DNA of 58,903 nucleotides. Origin: an uncultured Gammaproteobacteria bacterium. GTDB lineage: Bacteria > Patescibacteriota > Microgenomatia > Levybacterales > UBA12049. The notes under the pieces are model-generated. The model was not told where the DNA came from, ran no database searches, and saw nothing but the letters and a program-made list of their open reading frames with translations. Positions 37,598 to 53,453 of the stretch are shown here, one piece after another. How positions within the stretch are numbered: position 1 is the first letter of the stretch; every line of letters starts with the position of its first letter. The stretch spans positions 1 to 58,903 of the forward strand of contig CAYZEE010000001.1 of the NCBI GenBank assembly GCA_964477485.1, in the 5' to 3' direction. Position numbers and translations under genes: made by a program.

Positions 37598-38998
37598 ATG
37601 AGAAAGTATCTTATACTGCTTCTAATACTTGCTTTCTTCTCAATTTTTCTAGGAAGCGCTAAGGCGTTTTCGCTCCAAACAGATAGAATAATAATAAAAT
37701 TTCATTCAAAAACGCCATCTTATGTTCAGGAAGACTCAATAAAAAACCTCGGTATTACAAAAAAAGAAAAGTTAAAACTTTCTGATACCTTCTCTCTTAC
37801 GGTTCCAAAAGGCAAGGCTCGAGATTTTATTAATAAATTTTCGAAAAACAAAAATATTGAATACGCGGAAGAAGATCATATTGCAAAAGCGCAGGAAATA
37901 CCAAATGATCCATATTTTCCAAACCAGTGGGGACTTTCAATAATTCAGGCGCCCTCCGCATGGAATATAACACATGGCTCATCAAATGTGGACATAGCAA
38001 TAGTTGATACGGGAATTGACGGAGTTCATTCGGATTTATCATCAAAAATCGTCGCGTCCGCAGATTGTACAATTTCCATAAACTGCGTTGATACGGCGTC
38101 TGTTGATGATAACGGTCATGGAACTCATGTTGCGGGGATTGCGGCAGCAGAGACTAATAATGGCATCGGAATTGCAGGAACCGGCTATAACTCAAGTCTT
38201 ATGTCTGTAAAAGTTCTTGATAGTTCAGGGAGCGGTTATTATTCGTGGGTCGCAAATGGTATAGTCTGGGCAGCAGATCATGGCGCGCGTGTAATAAATC
38301 TAAGTCTCGGCGGGCCATATCCATCTTCTACGTTATCAAATGCTGTTTCGTATGCATGGAATAAGGGCGCGGTTGTTGTCGCAGCAGCAGGAAACAACGG
38401 CAGTACCTCTCCTCTTTATCCTGCATATTATCCACAAGTTCTTTCGGTTGCCGCGACAGATCGGAATGATAATATAGCCTGGTTTTCAAATTATGGTTAT
38501 TGGGTAAAAGTGGCAGCTCCCGGAGTTGACATATTTTCTACTTATAATAACGGAGGTTATGCAATTTTATCGGGAACCTCAATGGCGACTCCTTTTGTTT
38601 CAGGAGTTGCGGGGCTTGTCTTTGCCGATCATCCAAGCTGGACGAACACACAAGTCAGAAACAAGATTGAATCCTCAGCAGACCGAATTTTTGGGACCGG
38701 TTTTTACTGGCAGTATGGGAGAGTAGATGCATGTGGCGCTGTTGATTGCAACACGTCAATAAGTCCAACACCGACTCCGACTCCTACTCCAGCTCCATCT
38801 CCTACTCCAACCCCAACTCCGACACCGACGCCTTCTCCGAGTCCTTCTCCAACATTAACTCCTACTCCAACCCCGACGTCAGTTCCATCTCCGACATCTA
38901 CGCCAACTCCTACTCCAGGCGGCCCGCCGATTCCTCCTCCGCCGCCTCCGCCGCCAACTCCCTGGTGGTGCACCATCTGGCCATTCTTGTGCAAATAG
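37598..38998 (+). CDS. Secreted subtilisin-family (S8) serine protease with I9-like propeptide, long Pro/Thr/Ser linker and short Trp/Cys-rich tail
   Basis: Signal peptide present. Catalytic triad blocks [19 protein letters not shown] and [12 protein letters not shown]. The C-terminus is [14 protein letters not shown]...[26 protein letters not shown]. Confidence 0.9.
38766..38962. repeat. Low-complexity Pro/Thr/Ser-coding region (imperfect ACNCCN repeats) ending in a poly-Pro run
   Basis: Read directly. It also creates the spurious G/V-rich antisense ORF at 38704..39033. Confidence 0.85.
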
Positions 38999-39043
38999 CT
39001 TCTTGACAGGCAGGTATATAATAGTATGGCCAAAGCTTAGCTT

Positions 39044-39547
39044 ATGAGAAATATTAAAATTCTTGTTATCTTCCTTATTGTTATTTATGTAGTTACATTA
39101 CTGCAGAGAGGTTTTTTTAATGCTTCAAACAAAGCAAAAACTGCTCCTCCAAAGAAAATAATTTTTCCAACTGTTTCTGCTGTGCCGACTCCAACGCATG
39201 CTACTTCTCAAACCCGGAACTTAAGTCACCCAAATACTCCAACTCCGACTCCCGCGGTCCAGAGTCAAACCATCTCTGGCGATTTTGTCTATCCGGGTTC
39301 AACAAAGATAAGCGGGGACAATAATAATCTTATACTTTCAAGCACCCAGGATCCAAATACTATCACCAATTGGTACAAAGATAAAATAACAAGTTCGGGC
39401 GCAAATGCAAAATCATTTGTAACGACCAATACAAACGGAAATGCTCTAAATAAGCTGGTTGGAGCAGGAAGCTCATTCAGAATAAGCGTTGAAATATCCA
39501 GACAGAGCGGCGATACAACAACTAAAATTTCAGTAAGCCTGCAATAG
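39044..39547 (+). CDS. Membrane-anchored exported protein with PT-rich linker (167 aa), unknown function
   Basis: N-terminal TM segment, then the linker VPTPTHATSQ..NTPTPTPAV, then a small globular domain (FVYPGSTKI...WYKDKI...). Confidence 0.55.
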   Translation: MRNIKILVIFLIVIYVVTLLQRGFFNASNKAKTAPPKKIIFPTVSAVPTPTHATSQTRNLSHPNTPTPTPAVQSQTISGDFVYPGSTKISGDNNNLILSSTQDPNTITNWYKDKITSSGANAKSFVTTNTNGNALNKLVGAGSSFRISVEISRQSGDTTTKISVSLQ

Positions 39548-39557
39548 ATTTTAAAGT

Positions 39558-41045
39558 TTATTTCTTTACAAATACCCCCGAATATTTGTCACTCCATACC
39601 ATGTTCCACTTTTTCTCTTTTACCAGCTTAATAAGTCTTCTATAAACCGGTTTATCATATGACATATAAGCCGCATCATAACCTGTTTTATTGATGTCCG
39701 TTTGGTTTTGCTCAATTGCATAATACCGGTCAAACCCGCTGTAGCCCTTTTGGTCTCTCCATAAGTGCATTCTTCCGTCAATAGTCGGTTTTATCCTGGG
39801 GTAATTCCAGATAAGCCACCCGCCCCAATTATAAAGTGTAAAAAGTTTTTTCTTCTCTACATTATTTTTTAGAATAAAATTTGCTGCTTTTCCCGAACAG
39901 TAATAATGACTGCAAAATTTATTCCAGGAAAAATTATAATAACTTGATAAAGGAAGTTTAAAATAGAAAATCGGAATACCTATAAGAAGAAAAATTATGG
40001 TCCCCGATACATACTGATGTTTTTTCTTATTAGGTTCAAGGAAATGCGCAAGAGGTTTTAAAAGAGGAATAGATAAATAATACATCATCCAGGCATATCT
40101 TCGGACAAAAACAGAAAAAACAAGGGTTACCAGGAATACTGAAATTTCAGGAGCTCTTTTTATAATTTTATTTTCGGCAAATAAAATAACTGTACCCCAG
40201 AAAGCAAGAACCGAAACCAGGATAAGATTCCACCATGAAGTTGATAAATCATTAAAAGGCAGATACTCGGCAATTAGTTTTAAATCTGGACTTACGTGAT
40301 TTAGAACATCTTGATAGATTCTAATACCGTATGGATTGACTAAGGTAAAACTTGCTGAGACAAAAAATACAATCCCTAAGAGTCTTTTCTCCGAAAGTAC
40401 CTCCTTTAATTTAATTTTCAACATAAAATAATTATTCAAGAGTTTTACAGCAGCCCACCCGAAGAAAAGCAATAGCCCTAGTAAAAATTCTCCATTAGTA
40501 TTTGCCCATAGTAAAAATAAAAACGGAAGAAAGTAAATTGCTTTTTTATTCTCCCGATAGATACTAAGTATATAAAATAGTATGCCAAGAAATAGAAGGC
40601 TCAATAATTGGCCGCGGAAGGAAATTGAGTTTACTGGATCCATAAAATAAATCACAAGAGGAAAGATTAAGGATTGTTCAAAGAAGGAAAGTTTGGCGGC
40701 TTTTGAGAAAAAATAAAAAGTAAGAGTTATTACCAGCGCTCCAAGAATAACAACGCCCAGAAATCCAAAATTATGATACGCAAAATATGAAATTAGATCG
40801 GTAAACCATGAAGTATTTGCCCATTTATAACCGGGCATTAACTGGGAGAAAGTGTTGGTGCGAAGAAGCTTGCCATGTTGGAAAAAATACTGTCCGTATT
40901 TTAGATGCCAGCCGAAATCCGGATCTGTCGGAACATATAAAGATGCAATGAAAACAAAAATATAAGGAATAAATTCCAGCATGAGGCAAAGTATAACAAT
41001 ATTTTCGGGTATTGACAAGGAATTTAGCCCTGTGATATAGTCCAT
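39558..41045 (-). CDS. Polytopic (about 12 TM) GT-C-like membrane protein
   Basis: First external loop carries an acidic motif (VPTDPDFGWHLKYG). Many TM segments and a C-terminal soluble domain. No named family recognised with certainty. Confidence 0.55.
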   Translation of the reverse strand: MDYITGLNSLSIPENIVILCLMLEFIPYIFVFIASLYVPTDPDFGWHLKYGQYFFQHGKLLRTNTFSQLMPGYKWANTSWFTDLISYFAYHNFGFLGVVILGALVITLTFYFFSKAAKLSFFEQSLIFPLVIYFMDPVNSISFRGQLLSLLFLGILFYILSIYRENKKAIYFLPFLFLLWANTNGEFLLGLLLFFGWAAVKLLNNYFMLKIKLKEVLSEKRLLGIVFFVSASFTLVNPYGIRIYQDVLNHVSPDLKLIAEYLPFNDLSTSWWNLILVSVLAFWGTVILFAENKIIKRAPEISVFLVTLVFSVFVRRYAWMMYYLSIPLLKPLAHFLEPNKKKHQYVSGTIIFLLIGIPIFYFKLPLSSYYNFSWNKFCSHYYCSGKAANFILKNNVEKKKLFTLYNWGGWLIWNYPRIKPTIDGRMHLWRDQKGYSGFDRYYAIEQNQTDINKTGYDAAYMSYDKPVYRRLIKLVKEKKWNMVWSDKYSGVFVKK

Positions 41046-41080: not shown

Positions 41081-41719
41081 ATGGAAGAGAATATTAGTCC
41101 TAACGAAACCAGACCCAGTAGAATAAGACAGTTATATAGAGGAAATTCTCCGACAAAATTTTTGAGCAAAAAATATCTCCCGGCTTTTGTTCTTATAGTA
41201 ATTGTAATTATAGTTATCCTCATAGGAGTTAAAGTAATTTCAGGATCTTCTTCATCTTCGGACAATCAGAATCCGCAAAATGTCCAAATTGAAAAACCAT
41301 TAGCAACTGCAAATATAAATAAAACATTTGAGTTCCCTATTAAAAACGATAAAGGAAATGTGGTTGGAAAACTTACTTATGTTGCGCAGACAGGGGAACT
41401 TGACAGGCAAGTTATAATACAGGGCAAAGTTGCAACGGCAATTACAGGGAGAATGTTTCTTGTGCTAAATCTTAAGCTTGTAAACAATCAGGATAAGGGC
41501 GTAACGATTAACACGAGAGATTATGTACGCCTTTCGGTTAACGGAGACACAAAGGAGATGCTTGCCCCTTCAATTTATAATGATCCTGTAAGTGTCCAGC
41601 CGATTTCGACGCAATTTGCCAGGCTTGGTTTTGCTGTAAATACAACCGATAAAAACTTTATGCTTCAGGTTGGAGAGATTGACGGTAAGAAAGAAATGAT
41701 CAAGCTTAATTTTAAATAA
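41081..41719 (+). CDS. Membrane-anchored exported beta-sandwich-like protein (DUF4352-like?)
   Basis: N-terminal TM segment, an S-rich linker, then ..GRMFLVLNLKLVNNQDKGVTINTRDYVRLSVNGD.., resembling DUF4352-type domains. Confidence 0.5.
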   Translation: MEENISPNETRPSRIRQLYRGNSPTKFLSKKYLPAFVLIVIVIIVILIGVKVISGSSSSSDNQNPQNVQIEKPLATANINKTFEFPIKNDKGNVVGKLTYVAQTGELDRQVIIQGKVATAITGRMFLVLNLKLVNNQDKGVTINTRDYVRLSVNGDTKEMLAPSIYNDPVSVQPISTQFARLGFAVNTTDKNFMLQVGEIDGKKEMIKLNFK

Positions 41720-41721
41720 AA

Positions 41722-41967
41722 ATGGTGCAATCTCAAAAAGATAAAGCTGCAATACTAAGCGAAATACAAAAAGCTCTGGACGATATGATTTTTGGAAGTG
41801 TCGAGCTTTATGTGCAAAACAGCAAAGTTACCCAGATAACAGTAAGACACATTAAAAAAACCAGTATGCCTACAAAGTATGAAAACGAAAAGTTAGAAAT
41901 CGGTAAGAATGCAAAGAAACTATTGACAAACAAAAAAAATGCCAATATACTTGCTAATATAGATTAA
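41722..41967 (+). CDS. YezD-like small protein (DUF2292-like)
   Basis: ILSEIQKALDDMIFGSVELYVQNSKVTQITVRHIKKT matches the YezD pattern (..GSVxIxVqdgkVvqIe..). Confidence 0.55.
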   Translation: MVQSQKDKAAILSEIQKALDDMIFGSVELYVQNSKVTQITVRHIKKTSMPTKYENEKLEIGKNAKKLLTNKKNANILANID

Positions 41968-42149
41968 CTTAGTAGGATAAGCTGACCGCAAACGGAGGCT
42001 TTTTCACCCAACCCAGAGAGAAATCGAAGGGTCGGATGAAGGAGTCTCCGTTTTTGGTTCAAAACAAAAACCGAGAGCAGGAAGTGCAATCCGCCCCGAG
42101 TTTATCGAGGGGAGAAAGGAAATATACAAAGGGAGGAGGTGAAATATAA

Positions 42150-43418
42150 ATGAATGCAAAAAAAAGAATAGCAGTAGCAATTGCAACCGGAGCGCTTTTA
42201 CTTAACGCATTTGCACCACTGGCTTTTGCAGATACATCTATTGTTATTTCTGGCAATGGTAGTAATTCAAACAACACAACAAATGTTGTTACATCTACCA
42301 ATACGACAGTTCAACAAAGTAATTCGGCAAATGTCACAAATAATGTGACATCCAATGCAACAACAGGTGGAAATGACGCAAGTGCAAACACCGGAGGAAA
42401 CGTAACAGTCTCAACCGGCAATGCCAACAATAACACAACTGTTTCAACAGCTGTTAATGCAAATCAGGCGCAGGTATCAGGCTGCGGAACTTGCAACGGC
42501 GGCAACACAAGCGTTACGGTTTCCGGAAACGGCTCGGATTCAAATAACCAGGCGAACTTAACTACCGGGAATGAAACAAATGTAGTTCAAGGTAACCAGG
42601 CAAACGTTAAAAACAACGTTAATGCGAGTTCAAATACCGGAAGTAACGATGCGAGCGCAAACACCGGAGGAGACGTAACTGTTAGAACCGGAAGCGCCTC
42701 GTCTAATGCAAATGTTTCTACAACCGCAAATGCCAATGTGGCGCAGGTTGGAGGAAATGGCGGCTCTGGTTCACTTAGCCTTGTAATTTTAGGTAACGGG
42801 ACAGAGAGTCAGAACAGCATTGGTTTGTCAAGCGACAATTCAGTTTTGCTTTGGCAAGGTAATTCGGCAGTAGTCACGAATAACGTTAATGCTAATGCAA
42901 AGACTGGAAATAACGACGCGAGCGCAAATACCGGAGGAAACGTAACAGTCTCAACCGGCAATGCCGACGCAGGTGTTAATGTTGACAATATGGTCAACTT
43001 TAACTCTGCAGAAGCCGGATGCGGCTGCGATGTAACTGTTTTGGCAAAAGTTGCGGGAAATGGAGAGGACACCCAAAATAATATTTATGCCGACTTAGGC
43101 AATAGCTTGGGAGTCTTCCAGGATGTTGGGGAAGGCATGGGCGCTGAGAACATGGCCCTACTTACCAATAACGCCAATGCCACTTCAGGAACCGGAGGAA
43201 ACAACGCAGGTGCAAACACTGGACTCGTTTCAGGTGATGCTGTTTATGAGCAAACCGGAAACGCAACCAACAGCACAAACGTTGACAACTCAGGAAACGT
43301 AAACGTATTCGGTTCGGTTCTTCCTTTGCCAATGCCATTCAGCAATCTTAGCTTTTCAGCTAATTTTTCAGCTGTTTGGGCGGCATGGGGTGCTTTTTTA
43401 AGCAATATAGGAGCCTAA
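42150..43418 (+). CDS. Secreted Asn/Gly/Thr-rich repeat protein A (4 modules, no anchor)
   Basis: Strong SD (GGGAGGAGGTGA). Signal peptide ..LNAFAPLAFA/DTS. Four 86-94-aa modules and a hydrophobic/aromatic uncharged tail (LPLPMPFSNLSFSANFSAVWAAWGAFLSNIGA). Confidence 0.85.
   Translation: MNAKKRIAVAIATGALLLNAFAPLAFADTSIVISGNGSNSNNTTNVVTSTNTTVQQSNSANVTNNVTSNATTGGNDASANTGGNVTVSTGNANNNTTVSTAVNANQAQVSGCGTCNGGNTSVTVSGNGSDSNNQANLTTGNETNVVQGNQANVKNNVNASSNTGSNDASANTGGDVTVRTGSASSNANVSTTANANVAQVGGNGGSGSLSLVILGNGTESQNSIGLSSDNSVLLWQGNSAVVTNNVNANAKTGNNDASANTGGNVTVSTGNADAGVNVDNMVNFNSAEAGCGCDVTVLAKVAGNGEDTQNNIYADLGNSLGVFQDVGEGMGAENMALLTNNANATSGTGGNNAGANTGLVSGDAVYEQTGNATNSTNVDNSGNVNVFGSVLPLPMPFSNLSFSANFSAVWAAWGAFLSNIGA
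42231..43313. repeat. Four tandem ~86-94-codon modules (boundaries ~42231, 42513, 42780, 43038)
   Basis: Protein-level repeat: [IV]x[IV]xGNGxxSxN..QxNxAxVxNNVxAxxxTGxNDASANTGGxVTVxTGxA... At DNA level, a perfect 35-nt copy (ccggaggaaacgtaacagtctcaaccggcaatgcc) occurs at 42391-42425 and 42931-42965. Confidence 0.9.
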
Positions 43419-43479
43419 GTTCCTATGTAGTGTAGGGCAGTTTCGGCTGCACTTCATCGAAACGCCCTACACACGGAAC
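43419..43479 (+). promoter_or_regulatory. Long interrupted stem-loop (5+9+6 bp) starting at the first nt after the stop codon of protein A; no U-tract
   Basis: Paired segments are gttcc/ggaac (43419-43423 with 43475-43479), gtgtagggc/gccctacac (43430-43438 with 43464-43472) and gtttcg/cgaaac (43440-43445 with 43458-43463). The loop is 12 nt. Confidence 0.6.
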
Positions 43480-43546
43480 GAAAATCAAAATTAAAAAGAA
43501 AATAAACATTAAAAACTAAAAAAATAAAAATTTGAAAGATAAAGAT

Positions 43547-45784
43547 ATGATAACAAAAATTAAAAAAACAATTTCGATATTCACAATCGTAGCGCTTTTG
43601 CTGGTGCAAACTGGTCCTGCGTTTGCCGACAGCTTGCCTATTCCGCCGGCTCCGCCGACTGCTCCAACAGCGCCACCGCCTCCTGCGACAACTACCACTC
43701 CACCTCCTGCTCCGACAGCGCCGCCTGCGCCAACAGCGCCTCCTCCTGCTCCGACAGCGCCGCCTGCGCCAACAGCGCCACCGGTACAGACAACTACGGT
43801 TACTCCGACTCCAACTCCAACAGTTGATCCGGTTTCTACCAGTCAGGGAACTACTACCGGGTCAAATAATTCATCAGGAGGTTCAGGCTCAGGTAATCAG
43901 ACAGGTCAGACTGAAAATGGACAAACAGGAAATACCACTATTAACACCGGGAATACAACAAATACAGGTACTGTAACGACTAACGCAAATAATAATAGCA
44001 GCAGTTCATCGGGTTCAAACGGTACAGACCCTTCGGCTACCAATACCGGTAACGGTTCAAATTCTTCCAATAACAGCTCATCAGCAACAACGACAAATAA
44101 TAATTCATCGCAAAATAACAGCGCGACAGTTAATAACGGTTTGAGCATGACCACAACAACAGGACAAAATTCTGCATCGGAAAATGTCGGAAACTCTACC
44201 ATTAAGACAGGGGACGCAAATACATCGGGTACTGCCATAACCGGCGTTAATACAAATCTTAACGGAGTTTCTGTTTCGGAGTTTAATGTTGCGGATAATC
44301 ATGTCGGAGATATTACTTTGGATTTTCCTACAAATTGTATTTCAGGATGCGGGGGCACAAGCACATCAGCGCAAAATATCAATAACGGTTCCGGCTCAAC
44401 CAATAATGCAAGCGCGTCCGGAACCACAAATAATAGTTCTTTCCAGAATAATGATGCAAATGTCGGAAGCAATCTTACTCTTTCTTCCGACTCGGGTAAT
44501 AACGCGACTTCTAAAAATACATCAGGAGATTCTACAATTTCAACCGGCAATGCAAATGTTGATGCAAATTCTCTTACTTTTGCCAATAATAATTTAGACG
44601 GAAATGTAATCTTGGGAGTTGTAAATATATACGGAAATCTTCAGGGAGACATAATACTTCCGCAAAGTTCCATAGATAGCGCATGCGGCAATAACTGTTC
44701 GGCGGGATCAACAACATCTGCTTCGAACTCAAATAACGGCGCAGATTCCAATAACCTGGCCAATGCAAATAGTTCGACAAATAACCAGACAGCGCAAAAC
44801 AATAATGCGACTATTGACAATAATCTTTTGCTTGCGGCAGCAACGGGCAATAATCAAACAAACGGAAACACCAGTGGCAACTCAACGGTTCAAACAGGTT
44901 CATCAAATATTGACGCCAAGACCATAAATGTTGCCAACTCAAATGTAAACGGTGGGAATGTGTGGCTTGTTATTGTAAATAAAGCAGGGCAATGGATTGG
45001 GCAGATTTTAGGTGCGCCGCAAGGCAGCGATTTTGCAGGTTCATCCGGTACGGAATTTACGGTTTCCCCATCCGGTGAAATAACAGCGACAAACGGCGGA
45101 AACGGTTCAGGCTCAACAAACAATTCAAATGTTTCAAATACGACCAATAATACAACAGTCCAGAATAACAATGCCAAGATTGTAAATAATTTAAATCTCT
45201 CTGCAAATACCGGAGGAAACAACGCAAGCGACAATACAGGAGGAAATTCAACGATAGCAACAGGAAATGCAAATGTAATCGCAGATCTTATAAATTTTGT
45301 AAATAACAATATTTCAGGCAATGGGAAATTAATTGTTACAGTAGTTAATGTTTTCGGAAGCTGGTTCGGAGACTTTGTAGGGCCGGGAATGCATAAAGAT
45401 AAAAATACTAATAGTCAGTCCGGGAGCGTAGCGTCATTGTCTCAATCTCCGTCCAGTAGCGGAGGCTCGCAAAACTCTTCGAACAGCTCAAGTTCCAATT
45501 CATCATTAGGACAAAGTAGTTTAAATACAATTACAACTACCGCAATCGCAGTTGGAGGAACAGGCCAAATTTTGGCAGGCTCAATCCAGAACTCAAATGT
45601 TGCTCTTGTCGCCGGCGCAAATACCAATACCCCGAGTTTTAAAAGCATAGAATCAGCAAATGTTAAAAAGATAAATTTAAATCTTGCCTGGATAATTATT
45701 CTAGGCCCAATTTTATTCGCGGCTTACATAATAAGCAAAAGATATTTATCTAAATTTCTGCCCCGAAAGGCGACTTATGATTAA
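43547..45784 (+). CDS. Repeat protein B: signal peptide, PAPTAPP linker, N/S/T-rich region, 4 extended modules, C-terminal TM anchor
   Basis: Signal peptide ..VQTGPAFA/DS. Ends with ..LAWIIILGPILFAAYIISKRYLSKFLPRKATYD. The ORF track begins at TTG 43532; ATG 43547 is preferred. Confidence 0.8.
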   Translation: MITKIKKTISIFTIVALLLVQTGPAFADSLPIPPAPPTAPTAPPPPATTTTPPPAPTAPPAPTAPPPAPTAPPAPTAPPVQTTTVTPTPTPTVDPVSTSQGTTTGSNNSSGGSGSGNQTGQTENGQTGNTTINTGNTTNTGTVTTNANNNSSSSSGSNGTDPSATNTGNGSNSSNNSSSATTTNNNSSQNNSATVNNGLSMTTTTGQNSASENVGNSTIKTGDANTSGTAITGVNTNLNGVSVSEFNVADNHVGDITLDFPTNCISGCGGTSTSAQNINNGSGSTNNASASGTTNNSSFQNNDANVGSNLTLSSDSGNNATSKNTSGDSTISTGNANVDANSLTFANNNLDGNVILGVVNIYGNLQGDIILPQSSIDSACGNNCSAGSTTSASNSNNGADSNNLANANSSTNNQTAQNNNATIDNNLLLAAATGNNQTNGNTSGNSTVQTGSSNIDAKTINVANSNVNGGNVWLVIVNKAGQWIGQILGAPQGSDFAGSSGTEFTVSPSGEITATNGGNGSGSTNNSNVSNTTNNTTVQNNNAKIVNNLNLSANTGGNNASDNTGGNSTIATGNANVIADLINFVNNNISGNGKLIVTVVNVFGSWFGDFVGPGMHKDKNTNSQSGSVASLSQSPSSSGGSQNSSNSSSSNSSLGQSSLNTITTTAIAVGGTGQILAGSIQNSNVALVAGANTNTPSFKSIESANVKKINLNLAWIIILGPILFAAYIISKRYLSKFLPRKATYD
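43706..43779. repeat. 39-nt direct duplication encoding PAPTAPPAPTAPP
   Basis: cctgctccgacagcgccgcctgcgccaacagcgcc occurs at 43706-43740 and again at 43745-43779. Confidence 0.9.
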
Positions 45785-46934
45785 AAAGATTTTTGGGCCT
45801 ACAATTTTTGTTATTCTGCTTGGCGTGCTTTTATCTGCTACAGCAAAAGCAGATCAGACTGTGATCTCAATAACAGGGAATGGGAATTCTTCTCAAAATA
45901 CAACACAGGTAAATGTAAATACCTCAACAACAGTTCAACAATCAAACAACGCAAAAGTTGAAAATAATGTTACCAATACTTCAAATACGGGGAATAACCA
46001 GGCCTCATCGAATTCAGGCTCCTCAACTGTTACCACAGGATCTGTTACCAGCAACTCAAATGTAAATAATCAAAATATTAATTCGAACACAACAGATAAC
46101 AAAGAATGCGGATGCGCAAATAATATCACAACACAAATAACAGGAAACGGGACAAATTCAAATAACAATGTAAATTTAAATATTTCAAATACCACAAATG
46201 ATTCCCAGGGCAATAATGCAAATATTGCAAACAACATTGATAATCATGCAAATACCGGAGACAACAGCGCAAATAACAATCGTGGAAATGCCCAGATAAA
46301 TACGGGAAGCATTACAGATATAGTTGATATCAATAATAAAAATATAAATCAAAACGTGGACCCTCAAGAGGATAATTCAGGTTCATTAACCGTTAAAATC
46401 AAAGGCAATGGAGACGATTCAAATAACAATGCAACAATTGATTTATCCAATATTTTTAATTACAAAAGCAAAAACATTGCCGTACTCTTGAATACAGATA
46501 CCGAGGATCCAAATACCGGCGGCAATACAGCTGACGGCAATATCGGCGGTGTTCTGATTACAACCGGAAGTATTACAAAAATCACGACCATAGGAAATGA
46601 AAACATAAATGGGTCATCTTTTAATCCGCCAACTCAAATAGTTCCTTCTCCGGGAGGCGGCGGTCTGCCTCCGGGAGGTTCGCCGCCAGGCGAACAAGTC
46701 CCGCCGGTAAGTAGTCAGTCTTCATCTTCAGGAGGAGGTTCCTCATCCGGAGGAAGCGGAAGTTCTGTGGGAGGCCCGGGGCAAGTATTGGCAGCAGCCG
46801 TAGGAGCAGTCCTGCCGGCAACAGGAAGTTTTTGGATATTGCCGATAATGCTTCTGTCTATTACAATGTTTTTTGCGGGATGGTATCTGCGCTTTGGTTC
46901 TGATCTGTCCCCGCCAGCATATGCAACTATCTAG
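45777..46934 (+). CDS. Repeat protein C: signal peptide, 3 modules, P/G/S linker, LPATG cell-wall sorting signal
   Basis: Signal peptide ..LLSATAKA/DQT. C-terminus is ..AVLPATG + SFWILPIMLLSITMFFAGWYL + RFGSD... Overlaps B by 8 nt (ATGATTAA). Confidence 0.85.
   Translation: MIKKIFGPTIFVILLGVLLSATAKADQTVISITGNGNSSQNTTQVNVNTSTTVQQSNNAKVENNVTNTSNTGNNQASSNSGSSTVTTGSVTSNSNVNNQNINSNTTDNKECGCANNITTQITGNGTNSNNNVNLNISNTTNDSQGNNANIANNIDNHANTGDNSANNNRGNAQINTGSITDIVDINNKNINQNVDPQEDNSGSLTVKIKGNGDDSNNNATIDLSNIFNYKSKNIAVLLNTDTEDPNTGGNTADGNIGGVLITTGSITKITTIGNENINGSSFNPPTQIVPSPGGGGLPPGGSPPGEQVPPVSSQSSSSGGGSSSGGSGSSVGGPGQVLAAAVGAVLPATGSFWILPIMLLSITMFFAGWYLRFGSDLSPPAYATI
46812..46826 (+). other. LPXTG sortase recognition motif (LPATG)
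   Basis: Codons ctg ccg gca aca gga, followed by a 21-aa hydrophobic stretch and an Arg. Confidence 0.8.
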
Positions 46935-47472
46935 GAAGTTTTTTGGAAACGCCTTAATGGCGTTTTCTCTTTTTTTAATTATTTTTATATATTACCCGAT
47001 AATAGTTTTTTATCTTTTTCCAAATCAACAGAACATTAATCCGTCAAATACGGCGTTTTATATAGAAATTCCGAAAATAAATATAAAAACTCCAATTATT
47101 CCCGGTGTTGATCCGTTTAACGAAAAAAAATATAGACAGGCTCTTGAAAAAGGCGTTGCCCAGGCAAAGGGAACAGCTCTTCCGGGAGAGAAGGGAACTA
47201 TTTTCCTTTTTGCCCATTCATCTGATTTGCCCTGGAGGATTACAAGATACAACATCGCGTTTGTCAGACTGCCCGAGCTTAAAAAAGGCGATCTAATAAT
47301 AATTGTCAGAAACGGGAAAAAGTATAAATATAAAGTAAACGATGAGAAAACCGTCTGGCCAGATCAAGTTAATTATCTTCTTAATACAAAGAAAACCCAA
47401 TTAATTCTTCAAACCTGCGTACCAATCGGAACATCTTTCCAAAGACTACTCGTCTTTGCCGGTCCTCAATAA
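46921..47472 (+). CDS. Sortase-family transpeptidase
   Basis: N-terminal TM segment. IEIPKINIKTPIIPGV, LPGEKGTIFLFAHS (catalytic His), LILQTCVP (TLXTC-type Cys) and a downstream Arg (FQRLLVFA). ATG 46921 overlaps the end of protein C by 14 nt; the ORF-track TTG 46873 is less likely. Confidence 0.85.
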   Translation: MQLSRKFFGNALMAFSLFLIIFIYYPIIVFYLFPNQQNINPSNTAFYIEIPKINIKTPIIPGVDPFNEKKYRQALEKGVAQAKGTALPGEKGTIFLFAHSSDLPWRITRYNIAFVRLPELKKGDLIIIVRNGKKYKYKVNDEKTVWPDQVNYLLNTKKTQLILQTCVPIGTSFQRLLVFAGPQ

Positions 47473-47504
47473 AAAAAAGCCCCGCATTTCTGTAGGGCTT
47501 TTTT
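47473..47504. terminator. Bidirectional intrinsic terminator between the convergent sortase and protein D genes
   Basis: AAAAAAGCCC-12 nt-GGGCTTTTTT. The short GC stem is extended by A:T pairs, with an A-run on one side and a T-run on the other. Confidence 0.6.
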
Positions 47505-47530
47505 AGATTTTGGTTTAGCAACTAAATTTA

Positions 47531-48130
47531 TTAGTTACTATTACTTGAGCCGTAAACACTTACACTAATACCAGAGGTAGAAGTGCCACTGGTTATTCCG
47601 ACTGCTCCGCCTGTATTGTAATTAGCTTTGTTGTTTCCAGTGTCTGAAACTGCAAGTCCTTCGAGTCCAACCATTGTTATATTGTCCTGACTAAAGGTTG
47701 CGCTGTTAACATTGACAACTTTTGCAAAATTCGTCGAGTAATCTTCATTACCTGTAATATCAATACTTGTCGAGCTTGTGTCGCAACCACAAGGAAGACC
47801 TTGGGTATTGATGTTTGTATTACCGGTAACTCCTACTGAAACCGATGAACTAGCATTGCCGCTGCGAACAGCTACGTTTCCATTGGTGTTATTGTTTGCA
47901 TTATTTCCACCTGTATTGGAAACAGCCGTAGCTGTCGTATCCACGCTAGTAAAATTTGCTTGGGTAACAGATAATTTATTAATCTTTATTATATTGCCAT
48001 TATTAAAGGAATGCCATCCGTTACCTGATATAGTAATATTTGTGGTTGCAAATGCAGCGCCGGGTATAAGTGTTGCAAGAAAAAGAGAGCCGGTTGCAAG
48101 TGCTACTGCAAATTTTATCTTGTAATTCAT
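47531..48130 (-). CDS. Secreted Asn/Gly/Thr-rich repeat protein D (2 modules, no anchor)
   Basis: Strong SD (AAGGGGGTGA). Signal peptide ..LIPGAAFA/TTN. The modules share the ITISGNG.., ..NTGGNNANNNTNGNVAVRSGNA.. and LPCGCD features with A and C. Confidence 0.8.
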   Translation of the reverse strand: MNYKIKFAVALATGSLFLATLIPGAAFATTNITISGNGWHSFNNGNIIKINKLSVTQANFTSVDTTATAVSNTGGNNANNNTNGNVAVRSGNASSSVSVGVTGNTNINTQGLPCGCDTSSTSIDITGNEDYSTNFAKVVNVNSATFSQDNITMVGLEGLAVSDTGNNKANYNTGGAVGITSGTSTSGISVSVYGSSNSN

Positions 48131-48290
48131 TTTTTATTCACCCCCTTTAGAATCTCTTGGATTTTTGTGAAAGCAAAAAGACTTAGAGATTCTTAAGTCC
48201 GTCGCTCAAGCGCTCTTTGAGCCGTCTACGAATAGTAGTGCAAAGGCTCAGGGGGAAGCTTAGGCGGGCCTCACATTTTTTTCATCAAAA

Positions 48291-48309
48291 AACCAGCAAA
48301 AAGCTGGTT
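48291..48309 (-). terminator. Terminator-like hairpin inside the putative long leader of protein D
   Basis: The minus strand reads AACCAGC-UUUUU-GCUGGUU followed by UUUUGAUG. It is also U-rich on the plus strand. Confidence 0.4.
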
Positions 48310-48403
48310 ATTTAAGTTTTGAAATAATTTAATAAATTTAACAGCAATTCAGGCAGGTTGTTCATATTAGATTTTTTGCCGTGGGCAGTCGGCAAGTTTA
48401 ATC

Positions 48404-48434
48404 ATTATAGACGATGTTTAGATTGCCGTGTCAA
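48404..48434 (-). promoter_or_regulatory. Consensus hexamers TTGACA-19 nt-TATAAT on the minus strand, ~270 nt upstream of protein D
   Basis: The minus strand reads TTGACA cggcaatctaaacatcgtc TATAAT. The spacer is 2 nt longer than optimal. Confidence 0.4.
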
Positions 48435-48513: not shown

Positions 48514-49527
48514 ATGGCACAATTGATGGGGTTTATGCTTCTGTCGTCGTTTATAACATTTATTCTTCTTGTCCCCTTCATAGACTTTCTTTACAAGATG
48601 AAATTCAGACGCCAGAAACAGAAGACGCTGGATATGTTCGGCCAGCCCACTCCTAATTTTGACAGACTTCATTCATGGAAAACCGGTACTCCTTTTGGCG
48701 GAGGAGCTCTGGTTATTGTTCTTGTTTCAATTTTGACTTTATGGGCATACGGAATGTTTGGTATTGCTATTAAACCCTGGGAGGCTTTTACAATAATTTT
48801 TGCGTTTATCAGTTTTGGAATTTTGGGATTTTATGATGATTTGAAAAAACTTGTCAATAACGGCAAGAAATTCGCTTTTTTCGGATTGCGATTTAGATAT
48901 AAATTTCTTATTCAGTGGATTTTGGCTTTTATCATAGCGATAGTTCTGTACGCTCAACTTGGCTATTCTTTTATCTTCATACGGGGATTTGGACTTGCAA
49001 GTTTAGGGTTTTTATACATACCGTTTGCGGCTTTTGTTATAGTTTCATTTACAAATGCTTTTAATATTGCAGATGGTCTAGACGGGCTTGCTCCGGGGCT
49101 TCTTCTTATTTGTCTGGGAGCATTTCTTGCGCTTTCTGCGAACAGCGTTGATCAAACTTTAACGATTTTTACAGCGGTTCTTATGGGTAGTGTTGCCTCA
49201 TTTCTGTATTTCAATATTTATAAAGCCAGAATTTGGGCAGGGGATGTCGGCGCATTATCGCTTGGAGCGGCGCTTGCTGTTATCGGGCTTTTGACAGGCA
49301 AAATTATTGCCCTTGTTTTTATAGGCGGAGTTTTTGTTATTGAAGTCGGTTCATCTCTTATTCAAATTCTCGGCAGGAGATTTTTGGGCAAAAAAATTCT
49401 TCCTTGCTCTCCCTTTCATTTATATCTTCAAAAAATCGGCTGGGATGAGCCAAAAATCGTGATGCGCGCATGGCTTTTGGGATTTTTCTTTGCTATTCTG
49501 GGACTTTACATAGCCTTCATCAGGTAA
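48514..49527 (+). CDS. mraY: Phospho-N-acetylmuramoyl-pentapeptide transferase
   Basis: KTGTPFGGG, NAFNIADGLDGLA and 10 TM segments. Confidence 0.92.
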   Translation: MAQLMGFMLLSSFITFILLVPFIDFLYKMKFRRQKQKTLDMFGQPTPNFDRLHSWKTGTPFGGGALVIVLVSILTLWAYGMFGIAIKPWEAFTIIFAFISFGILGFYDDLKKLVNNGKKFAFFGLRFRYKFLIQWILAFIIAIVLYAQLGYSFIFIRGFGLASLGFLYIPFAAFVIVSFTNAFNIADGLDGLAPGLLLICLGAFLALSANSVDQTLTIFTAVLMGSVASFLYFNIYKARIWAGDVGALSLGAALAVIGLLTGKIIALVFIGGVFVIEVGSSLIQILGRRFLGKKILPCSPFHLYLQKIGWDEPKIVMRAWLLGFFFAILGLYIAFIR

Positions 49528-49540
49528 GTTATTCAAAGAC

Positions 49541-50614
49541 ATGAAAAGAATAGACATAATTCTTCTTCTATCTGTTGTATCTCTGACACTTTTTGGACTT
49601 TTTATGATATATGACGCGTCTTCTTTTGTTGCTTTTAGGGATTTTGGAGATAAGTACCATTATATAAAAAGCCAGGCTTTTTGGGTTGCATTCGGTTTTT
49701 TATTTATGACATTTTTCTCTTTTTTTTCCTACCGCAAGCTCTATAACCTATCTCTCCCAATTCTCATCGTTGCTCTTGTCCTTCTGTTCTCTGTTTTTCT
49801 TCCCGGTATCGGGGTTTACCTTCTTGGTGCGCACAGATGGATAAATTTGCGGTTTTTTCTTCTTCAGCCTGCTGAATTCGTAAAACTTGCACTTGCTATC
49901 TATCTTGCTTCCTGGTTGTCAACAAAAGAGAAAGGAAGATTTCTGGCATTTCTGCTTCTTCTATTTCTGGTCGTAGTCCTCGTAATTCTTGAGCCAGACA
50001 TGGGAACAGCTATGATTATATTGACGGAGGCTATAGTTGTTTATTTTCTTTCCGGCGGAAATATTTCTTATTTTTTGGCATTATTGCCGGCAGTTTTCGT
50101 AATAGGAGTAGCTCTTATAAAAATATCTCCCTATAGGGCAAAAAGACTTGAAACATTTTTTAATTTTAATCAATCAGTTCAAACCTCTTCTTACCACGTG
50201 CGTCAAATATTAATTGCCCTGGGATCAGGCGGTATATTTGGCGTAGGACTTTCGAATTCTTTGCAAAAATATGCGTATCTGCCCGAAACAACAACTGATT
50301 CTATTTTTGCCATAATTGCGGAAGAACTGGGTTTTGTTGGGGCGGTTGTTCTTATAGCAATATTTGCAGTTGTTGTCTGGCGGGGATTTTATATCGCTAT
50401 AAATGCAAAAGATAATTTTGGCAGACTTTTAGCAGGAGGAATTACTACGTTTTTGGCAGTCCAAATGATTATCAATTTAGCATCCCAGACAGTTCTGTTG
50501 CCCTTAACTGGTATTCCGTTGCCATTTATTTCTTATGGAGGGTCAGCTCTAATTATAGATCTTTGTGCCGTTGGTATTCTTCTTAATATTTCAAAACAAA
50601 GTGCAAAATTATGA
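49541..50614 (+). CDS. ftsW: SEDS-family peptidoglycan polymerase FtsW/RodA
   Basis: Polytopic, with LQPAEFVKLALAIYLA, EPDMGTAMI, PETTTDSIFAIIAEELGF and PLPFISYGGSA motifs. Confidence 0.9.
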   Translation: MKRIDIILLLSVVSLTLFGLFMIYDASSFVAFRDFGDKYHYIKSQAFWVAFGFLFMTFFSFFSYRKLYNLSLPILIVALVLLFSVFLPGIGVYLLGAHRWINLRFFLLQPAEFVKLALAIYLASWLSTKEKGRFLAFLLLLFLVVVLVILEPDMGTAMIILTEAIVVYFLSGGNISYFLALLPAVFVIGVALIKISPYRAKRLETFFNFNQSVQTSSYHVRQILIALGSGGIFGVGLSNSLQKYAYLPETTTDSIFAIIAEELGFVGAVVLIAIFAVVVWRGFYIAINAKDNFGRLLAGGITTFLAVQMIINLASQTVLLPLTGIPLPFISYGGSALIIDLCAVGILLNISKQSAKL

Positions 50615-51717
50615 GAGTTGTAGTTATTGGAGGACACCTATCCCCTGCATTATCTGTAATAGAAGCTCTTCCCAAGGGTTATGAGGTATTGTTTATAGGA
50701 AGAAAGTATATCTTTGAGGGGGACAAGACTTTATCGTTAGAATACCAAACCGTAAACAGTCTCGGCATTGCCTTTGCGTCTTTGTCAACAGGAAGACTTC
50801 AGAGAAAGTTTACAAAACATACAATTCCGTCTCTTTTTAAATTGCCTGGAGGGTGTCTTGAGGCCGTATCTATTCTTCACAGATTCAAACCGGATGTAGT
50901 TTTAGGTTTTGGAGGCTATCTTGAAATCCCCGTTGTACTGGCAGCTTATATTTTGCGAATTCCTGCTGTAATCCATGAACAGACTCAGGAAGCCGGTCTT
51001 GCAAACAAAATTTGTTCTCATTTTGCCAAAAAAATCTGTATCTCATGGGAGATCTCACGCAAGTTTTTCCCTGAATACAAAACTGTTTTAACAGGAAACC
51101 CAATACATGAATTCAAAGTTCAAAATTCAAAGTTCAAAATTCAAGAGAACGAATTACCGTTAATATATATTACCGGCGGAAGTTCGGGTTCCCATTCCAT
51201 AAATGTTTTAGCTGAGGGTTGTATAAAGCAATTATTAAAACATTTCAAAATTATTCATCAGACAGGAGATGCTAAAGAATTTAATGATTTCAAGAGACTT
51301 TCGTCTCTCCGGGAAAAATTTTCGCAGGAAGAAAAAGAAAAATATATTATTAAAAAATTTATTTCGCCCTCCGATGTTCTGGAAGTTTTAAAAACCGCCG
51401 ATTTGATAATCGGCAGAGCCGGAATAAATACGGTTACAGAACTTTTATATGCAGGAAAGCCCTGCGTTTTAATTCCTCTTCCATTTTCGCAGAATAAAGA
51501 GCAGTTGAAGAACGCGAAGCTTTTAAAGAAAGTGGGGCTGGCTGAGATATTAGAACAAAAATCGGCAACATCCGATAAGCTCCTCCGGCTTATTAAAAAG
51601 ATAACAGAGAATTTGGAAAATTATAAAAAAAAGGGAAAGTTGGCAAGAGCGCTTGTTGATGTAAATGCAGCAGATAAAATTATAAAAGTATTGGAAGATG
51701 AAAAAAAGAATCTCTAG
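50611..51717 (+). CDS. murG: UDP-GlcNAc:lipid I N-acetylglucosaminyltransferase MurG
   Basis: GGHLSPALSV (G-loop), IHEQT, TGGSSGSHSIN and GRAGINTVTELLYAGKPCVLIPLP motifs. A heptamer array lies at the interdomain linker. Confidence 0.9.
   Translation: MRVVVIGGHLSPALSVIEALPKGYEVLFIGRKYIFEGDKTLSLEYQTVNSLGIAFASLSTGRLQRKFTKHTIPSLFKLPGGCLEAVSILHRFKPDVVLGFGGYLEIPVVLAAYILRIPAVIHEQTQEAGLANKICSHFAKKICISWEISRKFFPEYKTVLTGNPIHEFKVQNSKFKIQENELPLIYITGGSSGSHSINVLAEGCIKQLLKHFKIIHQTGDAKEFNDFKRLSSLREKFSQEEKEKYIIKKFISPSDVLEVLKTADLIIGRAGINTVTELLYAGKPCVLIPLPFSQNKEQLKNAKLLKKVGLAEILEQKSATSDKLLRLIKKITENLENYKKKGKLARALVDVNAADKIIKVLEDEKKNL
51112..51145. repeat. Heptanucleotide tandem repeat TTCAAAR x4.9 (equivalently AAARTTC), in frame inside murG
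   Basis: Read directly: ttcaaag ttcaaaa ttcaaag ttcaaaa ttcaag. Encodes FKVQNSKFKIQE between TGNPIHE and LPLIYITGG. Confidence 0.95.
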
Positions 51718-52099
51718 AAGGAAAAGGAAAACTTTTTTTGTTTGGTTTTTCGCTTATTTATTTTTAATAATAGCTCTTTTTATCGTTTTTTTCATACATT
51801 CGGCCCCTTTTAAAAAGCTTACCATAATGAGTCCTTTGGGAAAAAATAAAACTTATGGGAATTCACAGCTTGTGGGTCTTCTTAGAAAAGAAAATATTGC
51901 CTTTTCTCGTGTTTCCATAGCATCCGATTCTTCGTATCTGGTAAGTATCTCAGGAGGAGGGAAGGTTTTTTTGTCTCCCGAAAAAGATTTGTCCACTCAA
52001 ATCAGGACTTTACAACTTATACTAAAACGACTTACAATAGAAGGAGAAAAAGTTAATACTCTTGATTTTAGATTTGACAAAATAATTCTAAAACCCTGA
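51698..52099 (+). CDS. ftsQ: Short FtsQ-like bitopic protein (133 aa)
   Basis: Basic N-terminus, one TM segment and a short exported domain. The call rests mainly on its position between murG and ftsA. Confidence 0.45.
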   Translation: MKKRISRRKRKTFFVWFFAYLFLIIALFIVFFIHSAPFKKLTIMSPLGKNKTYGNSQLVGLLRKENIAFSRVSIASDSSYLVSISGGGKVFLSPEKDLSTQIRTLQLILKRLTIEGEKVNTLDFRFDKIILKP

Positions 52100-52106
52100 C
52101 TAACTT

Positions 52107-53399: not shown

Positions 53400-53453
53400 T
53401 CAAAAAAACGGGGCTTGCAAAACCATTTTTTATCTGCTACATTTAGTGTGTTT

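Follow-up and report, generated by a model that had tools for sequence, protein, structure and literature searches.

What, if anything, do four paralogous repeat proteins encoded next to a sortase build at the surface of an uncultivated bacterium? The question is raised by a 58,903-nucleotide (nt) contig (CAYZEE010000001.1, assembly GCA_964477485.1; the whole stretch is referred to below as the window), which was deposited as an uncultured Gammaproteobacteria bacterium and is placed by GTDB in Patescibacteriota (Microgenomatia, Levybacterales, UBA12049). An earlier note, made from the sequence, had singled out four genes, here called A, B, C, and D, together with a sortase gene, as a candidate system for a wall-anchored, self-assembling fibre or sheath. 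All five open reading frames (ORFs) are present where they had been placed; two genes directly upstream of A, which were missed, also belong to the cluster (Table 1). One module recurs in the four paralogues, which differ only in tethering, and it is accompanied by a dedicated sortase, a conserved sorting signal, a fixed gene order, and a regulatory asymmetry that favors A. Within the Candidate Phyla Radiation (CPR), Microgenomates make up a large group without any cultivated member; for the coat or fibre on the surface of these ultra-small cells, no candidate is at present better than the seven-gene cluster. We give about an even chance to the reading that the products of the locus co-assemble into a surface structure that C and B tether, with a logic like that of the chaplins and without detectable homology to known systems; the specific terms "amyloid" or "fibre" deserve less confidence than that.

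One repeat module in four secreted proteins

Judged by eye, the N termini of A to D have a basic n-region, a hydrophobic core, and an AxA-type cleavage site (APLAFA/DTS in A, GPAFA/DSL in B, ATAKA/DQT in C, and GAAFA/TTN in D, the slash marking the site), in line with the Sec signal peptides noted before. A hidden Markov model (HMM) built from modules 1 to 3 of A matched four modules in A (independent E values of 1e-9 to 1e-43), four in B (1e-6 to 1e-13), three in C (5e-8 to 7e-15), and two in D (8e-9 and 4e-14), and found no module in control proteins searched alongside. When the 13 modules were aligned, N9, N15, N31, G46, N48, N53, G63, and N78 were invariant. Both the module numbers and the consensus skeleton that had been read from the sequence are borne out by these results. 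The module is ~88 amino acids (aa) long, with a core of ~81 to 91 aa, and is rich in Asn, Gly, and Thr; Asn accounts for 16 to 19% of A to D, and Gly, Ser, and Thr are plentiful. Tandem modules of 85 to 105 aa, longer in B, had been proposed: the tandem arrangement stands, but the B modules appear longer only because hydrophobic segments of 26 to 40 aa stand between them.

A and D carry neither a membrane anchor nor a sorting signal. The modules of A (aa 28–118, 119–207, 208–296, and 297–386) are followed by a conserved C-terminal tail of ~35 aa, overlooked before, which is transmembrane (TM)–like in 0 of 82 orthologues. D stops at a module end, and its orthologues are consistently ~200 aa long, with two modules, a CxC or CCC junction, and termination exactly at the module end. 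In B, the signal peptide is followed by a Pro-rich stretch, which was also missed, then by the modules, a Ser-rich linker, and a C-terminal TM-like segment; the last is found in 60 of 67 orthologues, which have four or five modules. C consists of a signal peptide, three modules (three in 39 orthologues, one in 12, and two in 4), a Pro/Gly/Ser linker, LPATG (in context, LPATG-SFWILPIMLLSITMFFAGWYLRF...), a hydrophobic segment, and a basic tail (YLRF). An LPxTG-type motif, a hydrophobic segment, and a positively charged tail are the marks of a wall-anchored protein, and the assignment of anchors to C and B, with none in A and D, was right.

The earlier description also lacked the paired cysteines that occur at particular module junctions (CGC, CGTC, and CC in A, C, and D and CxxxC in B). 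They are located at aa 112/115 and 291/293 of A, 264/268 and 380/384 of B, 111/113 of C, and 114/116 of D, where the junction reads CGC. Such pairs (CxC, CxxC, CC, or CCC) are kept in A and D orthologues; they may form strained disulfides locally, cross-link subunits, or bind metal. A further residue, K300 of A (LAK[IV]xGNG), is near-invariant. A role as a pilin-type nucleophile was rejected as a general mechanism, since A is without a sorting signal and the equivalent Lys of C is not conserved.

Searches of Pfam and NCBIfam at E ≤ 1 gave no match for A to D, and neither A nor the module profile matched PDB sequences at E ≤ 10. The earlier impression that no named family is involved has thus held up against Pfam, NCBIfam, PDB sequences, and Foldseek. 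The literature that we searched held no description of the module family or of the leader RNA considered below, and both appear to be undescribed in the databases and literature searched. A sortase-tethered, self-assembling surface structure as such is a kind of system known in outline.

The cluster is conserved across Microgenomates

At least 523 homologues of A were found, of conserved length (~410 aa) and all annotated "hypothetical." Among 1.84 billion cluster representatives, the module profile matched 2,924 clusters at E ≤ 1e-3 and 1,937 at 1e-10, mostly four-module A-type or ~750-aa B-type proteins and almost all from Microgenomates. The genome titles name Levy-, Gottesman-, Woese-, Chisholm-, Ames-, Davies-, Roizman-, and Shapirobacteria, all Microgenomates, with stray Parcubacteria labels. 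Many third-party annotation metagenome-assembled genomes (MAGs) titled "uncultured Gammaproteobacteria" carry the cluster next to typical Microgenomates neighbors (loci L006, L010, L013, L016, L018, L023, L033, and others); these titles are evidently taxonomic mislabels.

Loci of relatives were gathered with a 12-sequence alignment as the query. The arrangement TM protein–DUF2292–A–B–C–sortase–D, with D reversed, was first recognized in L001 and L002 and recurs in ~80 GTDB species genomes. The TM protein gene lies directly upstream in essentially all loci that reach that far, and the DUF2292 gene sits between it and A in 72 loci. Where at least 2.5 kb of sequence follows B, a sortase gene is located within 3 kb past B in 49 of 60 loci and a C-like gene is present in 43 of 60. 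Among the 55 loci that continue for 3.5 kb or more past B, D was recognized in 33, a lower bound because D is divergent: a word-index search with D gave three matches only, and D orthologues were instead drawn from the loci. The earlier note had named a lack of linkage between the repeat family and a sortase as an outcome that would speak against its proposal. The linkage is conserved, as is the signal of C, and this objection therefore falls.

A sortase with class C affinity and its predicted substrate

By its sequence, the product of the sortase gene is a true sortase. It scores 84.7 bits with PF04203 (cut-off, 26.6) and 67 bits with TIGR01076 (cut-off, 39.35), and the catalytic His (FAHSS), Cys (LILQTC), and Arg (QRLLV) are present and conserved in 28 orthologues. 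All class-specific NCBIfam models scored below their cut-offs, the best being that of class C, NF033745 (70.7 versus 160 bits), and the nearest solved relatives in PDB are class C enzymes (E = 5e-13). Reading of the sequence for class C traits, an N-terminal DP(F/W/Y) lid and a C-terminal TM segment, found neither: the 183-aa protein has a TM segment at the N terminus only and no lid. A VDPFNE motif was considered as a lid and rejected by its position, past the first beta strands at the site of the SrtA beta2-beta3 linker. The sequence points to class C affinity without class C membership.

The sorting signal of C is LPxTG in 33 of 54 orthologues and L[SA]x[TA][SA]G (as in GLSDTSG) in most others, followed by a TM segment and a basic tail. 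In full, the variant that substitutes for LPxTG reads (V/I)(L/M)GL(S/A)x(T/A)(S/A)(G/S), again ahead of a TM segment and basic tail. It occurs in L001, L004, L008, L010, L020, L021, L031, L032, L040, L048, L052, L059, and L066, loci whose titles name Gottesman-, Ames-, or Woesebacteria or that belong to untitled or mislabeled MAGs. The variant implies that the specificity of the cognate sortases would have co-varied.

A terminator-like hairpin (GGAAACGCC...GGCGTTTTC plus a T-run, 46945–46967, plus strand) begins 11 nt past the C stop codon, within the 5′ end of the sortase ORF, and may lower sortase expression relative to C. Other sortases occur nearby in some relatives: on a Gottesmanbacteria contig, a second sortase adjoins a >1,840-aa SpaA-domain protein just upstream of the cluster (L001, 1–6296), and additional sortases precede the TM protein in L006, L007, L024, and L064. 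Méheust et al. reported that nearly all Microgenomates have a certain sortase family and that the families enriched in this group are mostly hypothetical proteins (PMC6744442). The cluster supplies a conserved predicted substrate for a sortase of this kind.

Coevolution points to an antiparallel beta-arch stack

AlphaFold2 (AF2), run on A with 56 homologues, gave an all-beta model with a mean predicted local distance difference test (pLDDT) score of 64 and a predicted template modeling (pTM) score of 0.62. Each module forms one very long hairpin, with pLDDT values of 80 to 89 in the TGxNxAxxNTGGxVxVxTGxA half, and a C-terminal helix is also predicted. This model was used for the fold search, from which a two-module model with a pLDDT of 43 was left out. 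The top Foldseek matches, none of them significant, were FapC (the best, E = 0.07), CsgA (8c50, E = 0.9), and beta-helix lyases. With template modeling scores of 0.04 to 0.15 (<0.1 for FapC) and root mean square deviations of ~40 Å, these matches give no evidence of a fold shared with beta-helices, FapC, or CsgA.

The list of matches bears on one alternative, namely, that A and D are secreted soluble effectors, toxins, or binding proteins for ice, minerals, or polysaccharides, unrelated to wall anchoring. Asn/Thr-rich flat beta repeats are known in ice- and carbohydrate-binding beta-helices, and weak matches to lyase beta-helices and an ice-binding protein were indeed seen (E = 0.2 to 2). However, none of the Foldseek matches is significant, the candidate outward binding face is not conserved, and the tight synteny with anchored paralogues and a sortase would be left unexplained. 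We consider soluble effectors very improbable.

Since AF2 and Foldseek gave no firm fold, mean-field direct coupling analysis (DCA) was run on 1,241 distinct modules (effective number, Meff, ~1,060) from the loci and homologues. The main signal is an antiparallel ladder (i + j of ~108) from (50,58) to (25,82), which corresponds to the AF2 hairpin; a small hairpin, (4,17) and (6,17), is also seen. Other contacts do not fit a flat hairpin: Q29 couples with 41, 43, 54, and 65; I6 with 27, 41, and 72; 65 with 75 and 78; and 58 with 80. The GNG loop (9–12) couples with G46, N53/T54, and G63. The non-flat contacts are all among conserved positions of the same, inward parity. Taken together, the couplings suggest that the module is a ribbon folded back at an N37/N73 corner into two layers with an Ala/Val/Asn/Gln core. 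It would amount to two stacked beta-arches of opposite direction, with the small N-terminal hairpin and the GNG loop packing onto the NTGG tip.

When 668 tandem pairs were analyzed, strand b of one module coupled with strand a of the next in the same register (78-29, 75-35, 65-43, 73-37, and 58-50), and these signals were stronger and more numerous than those of the reverse combination. The sheets would therefore run continuously through the protein. Because the last strand of a module pairs with the first long strand of the next, each protein would amount to a short cross-beta stack, antiparallel and open-edged at either end. Such a putative stack is backed by coevolution and partly by AF2. 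In cross section it would resemble a solenoid, yet it would not be a parallel one. Of the solenoid- or curli-like fold suggested earlier, the stacked arches, the Asn/Gln/Ala/Val core, and the continuity of the sheets find support in DCA; a parallel solenoid does not, there is no homology to CsgA, and the AF2 model, of only moderate confidence, shows flat long hairpins.

A conserved leader RNA and the expression of A

When the Shine-Dalgarno (SD):anti-SD duplexes of the 54 ORFs of the window were compared, that of A was the strongest (−19.7 kcal/mol) and that of D the second strongest (−15.4 kcal/mol). B and C were not among the strongest, so that the claim of exceptionally strong SD sequences for the whole gene set applies to A and D alone. 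Most genes of the window show weak or no SD complementarity (weaker than ~−10 kcal/mol); the exceptions are A, D, and the ORF at 27820–28281 (−13.4 kcal/mol). B, C, and the sortase gene form a coupled unit because the genes overlap, B and C by 8 nt and C and the sortase gene by 14 nt. The 110 nt that follow A fold with z < −2 in 76 of 76 relatives, compared to 24% of internal controls. The hairpin located here is a candidate attenuator or 3′ stabilizer that would part A from B, C, and the sortase gene and probably sets the ratio of A to their products.

The gap between the DUF2292 stop codon and the A start codon has a median length of 289 nt in relatives and is structured in 94% of them; GGAGGTGA precedes the A start codon in 62 of 65. 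The gap holds an RNA element that is conserved far better than the proteins and consists of AGCUGACCGCAAACGGAGGCUU, a variable stem-loop, and GCCUCCGUUUUUUU. In order, a single-stranded GCUGACCGCAAAC is followed by a long hairpin; in short form, the motif reads GCUGACCGCAAACGGAGGC...GCCUCCGUUUUU. In an alignment of 52 sequences, the lower stem, ACGGAGGC/GCCUCCGU, in which an SD-like sequence pairs with an anti-SD-like one, is invariant, and the variable upper stem shows compensatory double changes at 13 pairs. Since the hairpin is followed by a U-run, the element is terminator-shaped. It is located 20 to 45 nt past a promoter whose TTGACA and TATAAT-like boxes are conserved across 28 aligned leaders; in the window, this promoter-like site falls within the 3′ end of the DUF2292 gene. 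Folding energies are −39.7 kcal/mol for the 83-nt element and −52.8 kcal/mol (z = −5.7) for 141 nt (41970–42110). The covariance model of the element, R1, scores 67.9 bits at 41976–42058 and finds no second copy in the window. Rfam 15, searched with the leaders, returned no family; the sole match was a spurious microRNA hairpin (27.6 bits versus a gathering score of 66).

The element is found about 100 to 200 nt upstream of A in ~70 of 80 loci (L001 to L082) and occasionally ahead of D-type genes instead (L001 and L056); upstream of D, the motif was also placed in L001, L015, and L068. A 19-mer scan of metagenomes located the motif on at least 120 contigs. Of the 104 instances with room for a gene, 88 are followed by a member of the module family, a median of 170 nt away; where that gene is complete (66 cases), it is A-like in 61. 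Among the other instances, several stand ahead of different small secreted proteins. At two metagenome loci (L186/L190), the motif is followed by a protein with a signal peptide ending in AYAYFTS that looks TasA/camelysin-like by eye, and in a Levybacteria genome, a Peptidase_M73 (TasA/camelysin-type) gene lies near the cluster (L002, 16532–17113, minus strand). The occurrence of the motif and of TasA-like neighbors suggests that there may be a shared regulon of secreted structural proteins.

D is transcribed convergently, toward A, B, C, and the sortase gene, from its own promoter-like site (TTGACA at 48434–48429, a 19-nt spacer, and TATAAT at 48409–48404). The covariance model did not find the A-type motif in the D leader of the window; a small hairpin there, GCCGACUGCCCACGGC, vaguely resembles the 5′ part of that motif. 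The D leader contains a terminator-like hairpin (48309–48291) followed by a U-run, and therefore both free subunits may be under attenuation-type control. Possible roles of the A leader include an attenuator with a ribonucleic antiterminator (RAT)–like protein site, an RNase III or 5′-stabilizer element, and a ribosome-related SD/anti-SD mimic. That the DUF2292 protein acts on it in trans is speculative.

Overall, this anatomy would be expected if A were the major subunit and abundant, D another free subunit, and the anchors and the enzyme expressed at a low level. The proposal that A and D are the major unanchored subunits gains from it, since the regulatory features speak for high expression of A and, to a lesser degree, of D. 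The long leaders and the terminator that had been pointed out earlier are real; the leaders are structured, and the terminator, past the sortase gene, is bidirectional.

Variable positions fit possible contacts of A with B, C, and D

At variable outward-facing positions, A resembles the B, C, and D encoded in its own genome more closely than those from different genomes (z = 7.5, 6.1, and 5.2, respectively). No such effect was seen for the pairs C-D and B-D (z ~0), and B-C reached z = 2.1 only. Among the modules of A, and among those of D, identity at the variable positions is high (0.33 and 0.34, respectively). The hub-like pattern fits a protein A that would contact each of B, C, and D.

The same positions matter for another explanation, in which A to D are independent, non-assembling surface or secreted proteins (for example, adhesins for host cells or particles) that share a stable beta-repeat scaffold and differ in their tethers, like Listeria internalins; the cluster would then be a family of paralogues beside its sortase and no assembly system. 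Hypervariable outward positions are what binding or immune-evasion surfaces would show; here, however, the conserved face is buried rather than exposed, and A co-varies with each of B, C, and D, which do not co-vary mutually. B and C do have the stalk-plus-anchor architecture typical of monomeric wall proteins, and the conserved tail of A could be a cap, but A and D cannot stay on the cell unless they bind something. Adhesins would also suit CPR bacteria, which are thought to live attached to hosts (PMC6744442). Unlike in expanding adhesin families, copy number, module number (four in A and two in D), and gene order are fixed across deep lineages, and the expression anatomy points to a bulk structural product. 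On balance, we regard independent adhesins as rather unlikely.

Organization of the locus and its surroundings

Table 1. Features of the seven-gene cluster in the window.
Feature	Position	Strand	Basis or remarks
Promoter-like site, TM protein/DUF2292 gene pair	41012..41041	+	TTGACA-18-TATAGT, TG-extended; consensus scan, 11/12 matches
TM protein, first cluster gene, 212 aa, type II membrane protein	41081..41719	+	
DUF2292 (YezD/OscA-like) small cytoplasmic protein, 81 aa, without signal peptide	41722..41967	+	
Promoter-like site, gene A	41923..41951	+	TTGACA-17-TATACT; scan, 11/12 matches
Conserved leader RNA element	41976..42058	+	Folding energy, covariance model, 52-sequence alignment
A, secreted, 422 aa, four modules	42150..43418	+	ORF list, module HMM
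Hairpin straight after A stop codon, without U-run	43419..43479	+	−31.3 kcal/mol, z −4.3
B, 745 aa, four modules, C-terminal TM anchor	43547..45784	+	ORF list, module HMM
C, 385 aa, three modules, LPATG sorting signal	45777..46934	+	ORF list, module HMM
Sortase, 183 aa	46921..47472	+	Pfam Sortase, E 5.6e-24
Bidirectional intrinsic terminator between convergent sortase gene and D	47473..47506	both	A8-GCCCCGC...GUAGGGC-U6; z −3.5 (+), −6.5 (−)
D, secreted, 199 aa, two bare modules	47531..48130	−	ORF list, module HMM
D leader and promoter-like site	48131..48434	−	Read from sequence; hairpin from scan

The first protein of the cluster has a cytoplasmic N-terminal stretch, a single TM segment, and an extracellular beta domain, which is weakly DUF4352-like in three of four orthologues at sub-threshold E values of 8e-4 to 0.1. 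The second matches DUF2292 in Pfam (E = 9.5e-9) and OscA in NCBIfam (E = 4.8e-10, under the OscA cut-off); a PDB search found no relative of it. An alternative TTG start codon of B is present at 43532.

The flanks of the cluster in the window are made up of envelope genes (37598–41045 and 48514–54545). On the upstream side, a GlmU-like gene is accompanied by genes for a secreted subtilase, which has a fervidolysin-type prodomain, and for a polytopic membrane protein of 495 aa; MraY, FtsW, MurG, FtsA, and FtsZ are encoded downstream. The label "GT39-like" for the ORF at 39558–41045 was a guess and was dropped, as Pfam gave no match. The envelope-gene context is common only to close relatives (L041 and L002), and the flanks are otherwise not conserved.

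This setting would suit a two-dimensional, S-layer–like lattice, or a wall scaffold for peptidoglycan growth or division, anchored by C and B: in the window and close relatives, the cluster stands between the GlmU-type/subtilase genes and the MraY-FtsW-MurG-FtsA-FtsZ genes. S-layer genes classically show a long structured 5′ untranslated region and a strong SD sequence, and A has the same expression signature. A regular surface layer of unknown composition was reportedly seen by Luef et al. in 2015, using cryo–electron microscopy, on ultra-small cells from groundwater, OP11 among them. The formation and structure of CPR envelopes have been called unclear (PMC5220378), which leaves room for such a lattice. 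Pfam, however, finds no SLH, CWB2, or other S-layer anchoring domain in A to D, and the flanking genes are not conserved outside close relatives. A lattice would differ from a tethered co-assembling structure in geometry only, and the data do not separate lattice from fibre. We regard a lattice or scaffold as quite unlikely.

A model for a tethered surface structure

If the locus does encode a co-assembling structure tethered by C and B, the following course of events can be proposed. A to D would be exported via Sec; the sortase would cut C at LPAT/G and join it to peptidoglycan, and B would be retained in the membrane. On their flexible Pro/Gly/Ser linkers, C and B would present open-edged stacks, to which abundant free A stacks, and also D, would add through edge-to-edge pairing of beta strands, with the junction CxC cysteines possibly cross-linking the added stacks. 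A fibre, sheath, or layer tethered to the wall would result. The output of A would be set by the terminator-shaped leader RNA and the post-A hairpin, so that A would greatly outnumber B, C, and the sortase. That the proteins self-assemble, that they are amyloid in character, that they form a fibre and not a layer, and that B and C act as nucleators is inferred.

Several points weigh against this model. AF2 confidence is moderate (pLDDT of 64) and falls to 43 for the two-module construct, modeled from 37 tandem-pair sequences; Foldseek matched the A model to no entry of PDB or BFVD at E ≤ 0.001. AF2 also shows unbroken 30-residue strands and flat hairpins, in contrast to the fold-back implied by DCA, whose cross-layer contacts could be intermolecular instead. 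The strong i,i+L couplings between modules were rejected as stacking contacts: they are dominated by concerted evolution of the repeats, which yields the same signal. The same-genome effect is small (e.g., 0.125 versus 0.110) and could reflect gene conversion. C, the sortase, or D was undetected in 10 to 40% of the loci with room for them, which divergence may explain. The conserved C-terminal tail of A could cap the stack and block end-to-end growth. Last, the polymerization, abundance, and surface location proposed for these proteins are predictions from sequence.

A more far-reaching version is that A is the monomer of a polymer class not known so far, an antiparallel beta-arch stack that would grow by edge pairing from sortase-anchored C and membrane-anchored B, be cross-linked by CxC disulfides, and form the surface layer or sheath of Microgenomates, under the control of a new attenuator leader possibly read by the DUF2292 protein. 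We see this version as a long shot.

The cluster is a concrete seven-gene candidate for the main surface structure of Microgenomates. Its module may offer a new way to build a cross-beta stack, from antiparallel double rungs. As a candidate regulatory RNA, the leader element is new and strongly conserved, and it marks genes of secreted structural proteins in these organisms.

Comparison with known systems

Curli (CsgA/CsgB) and Fap (FapC) fibres resemble the system proposed here in their tandem strand-turn-strand repeats, rich in Asn, Gln, Gly, and Ala, in a two-layer cross-beta core, and in the division between a major subunit and a cell-bound nucleator. Homology to CsgA was rejected: comparison of the module profile with E. 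coli CsgA gave an hhalign probability of 0.07, and Curlin_rpt (PF07012) had no match at E ≤ 1. Curli and Fap stacks are parallel, whereas the stack proposed here is antiparallel, with two hairpin-joined rungs per module. Those systems belong to diderms and use an outer-membrane channel, while here a monoderm would rely on sortase tethering; neither a CsgG/FapF channel nor CsgE/F-type chaperones were found in the cluster or its conserved neighbors.

The Bacillus TasA/TapA/SipW system is, like the one proposed here, that of a monoderm in which one secreted protein is the main fibre subunit and another, associated with the cell, is an accessory or anchor. The TasA subunit is a globular jelly-roll that assembles into fibres through donor-strand exchange, in contrast to the stacking of repeats envisaged here, and the module shows no homology to Peptidase_M73 in Pfam.

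Sortase-assembled pili of the SpaA type share with the cluster a dedicated sortase beside its substrate and several structural paralogues encoded together, and the nearest solved relatives of the sortase are also class C (E = 5e-13). All SpaA-type pilins bear a sorting signal, whereas here only C does, so that A and D could not be polymerized by transpeptidation. Pfam detected no CnaA/CnaB or SpaA domains in A to D, and the last module of C often has a Lys, but without conservation, leaving no conserved pilin-motif Lys.

Known S-layer wall-binding modules and homologues were absent from A to D in Pfam, NCBIfam, and PDB. In archaeal SH sheaths, cross-beta contacts form between monomers and are reinforced by disulfides, and no bacterial structural homologue has been reported (PMC11576556). 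The proposed cross-beta stacks and the conserved junction Cys motifs make the sheath of Methanospirillum and Methanothrix an analogue; no similarity to it was detected, and the anchoring logic differs.

In Streptomyces chaplins, one domain occurs in short free and long sortase-anchored forms, and the anchored proteins have been proposed to tether a cross-beta layer to peptidoglycan (PMC5618241). The likeness, in logic only, is that free and sortase-anchored paralogues share one assembly domain (ChpA-H with a class E sortase in the chaplins). Conserved Cys pairs occur in both, and the L[SA]xT[SA]G signal of some C orthologues recalls the LAxTG motif of class E (PMC5148588). The chaplin domain is ~40 aa long and hydrophobic, whereas the module described here is ~88 aa long, polar, and Asn-rich; the chaplin family PF03777 had no Pfam match in A to D at E ≤ 1, and the organisms that carry the cluster form no aerial hyphae. 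Beyond what is found with the chaplins, the Microgenomates system adds a membrane-anchored paralogue, a TM/immunoglobulin-like protein, a DUF2292 protein, and a leader RNA, all encoded in one fixed, operon-like cluster.

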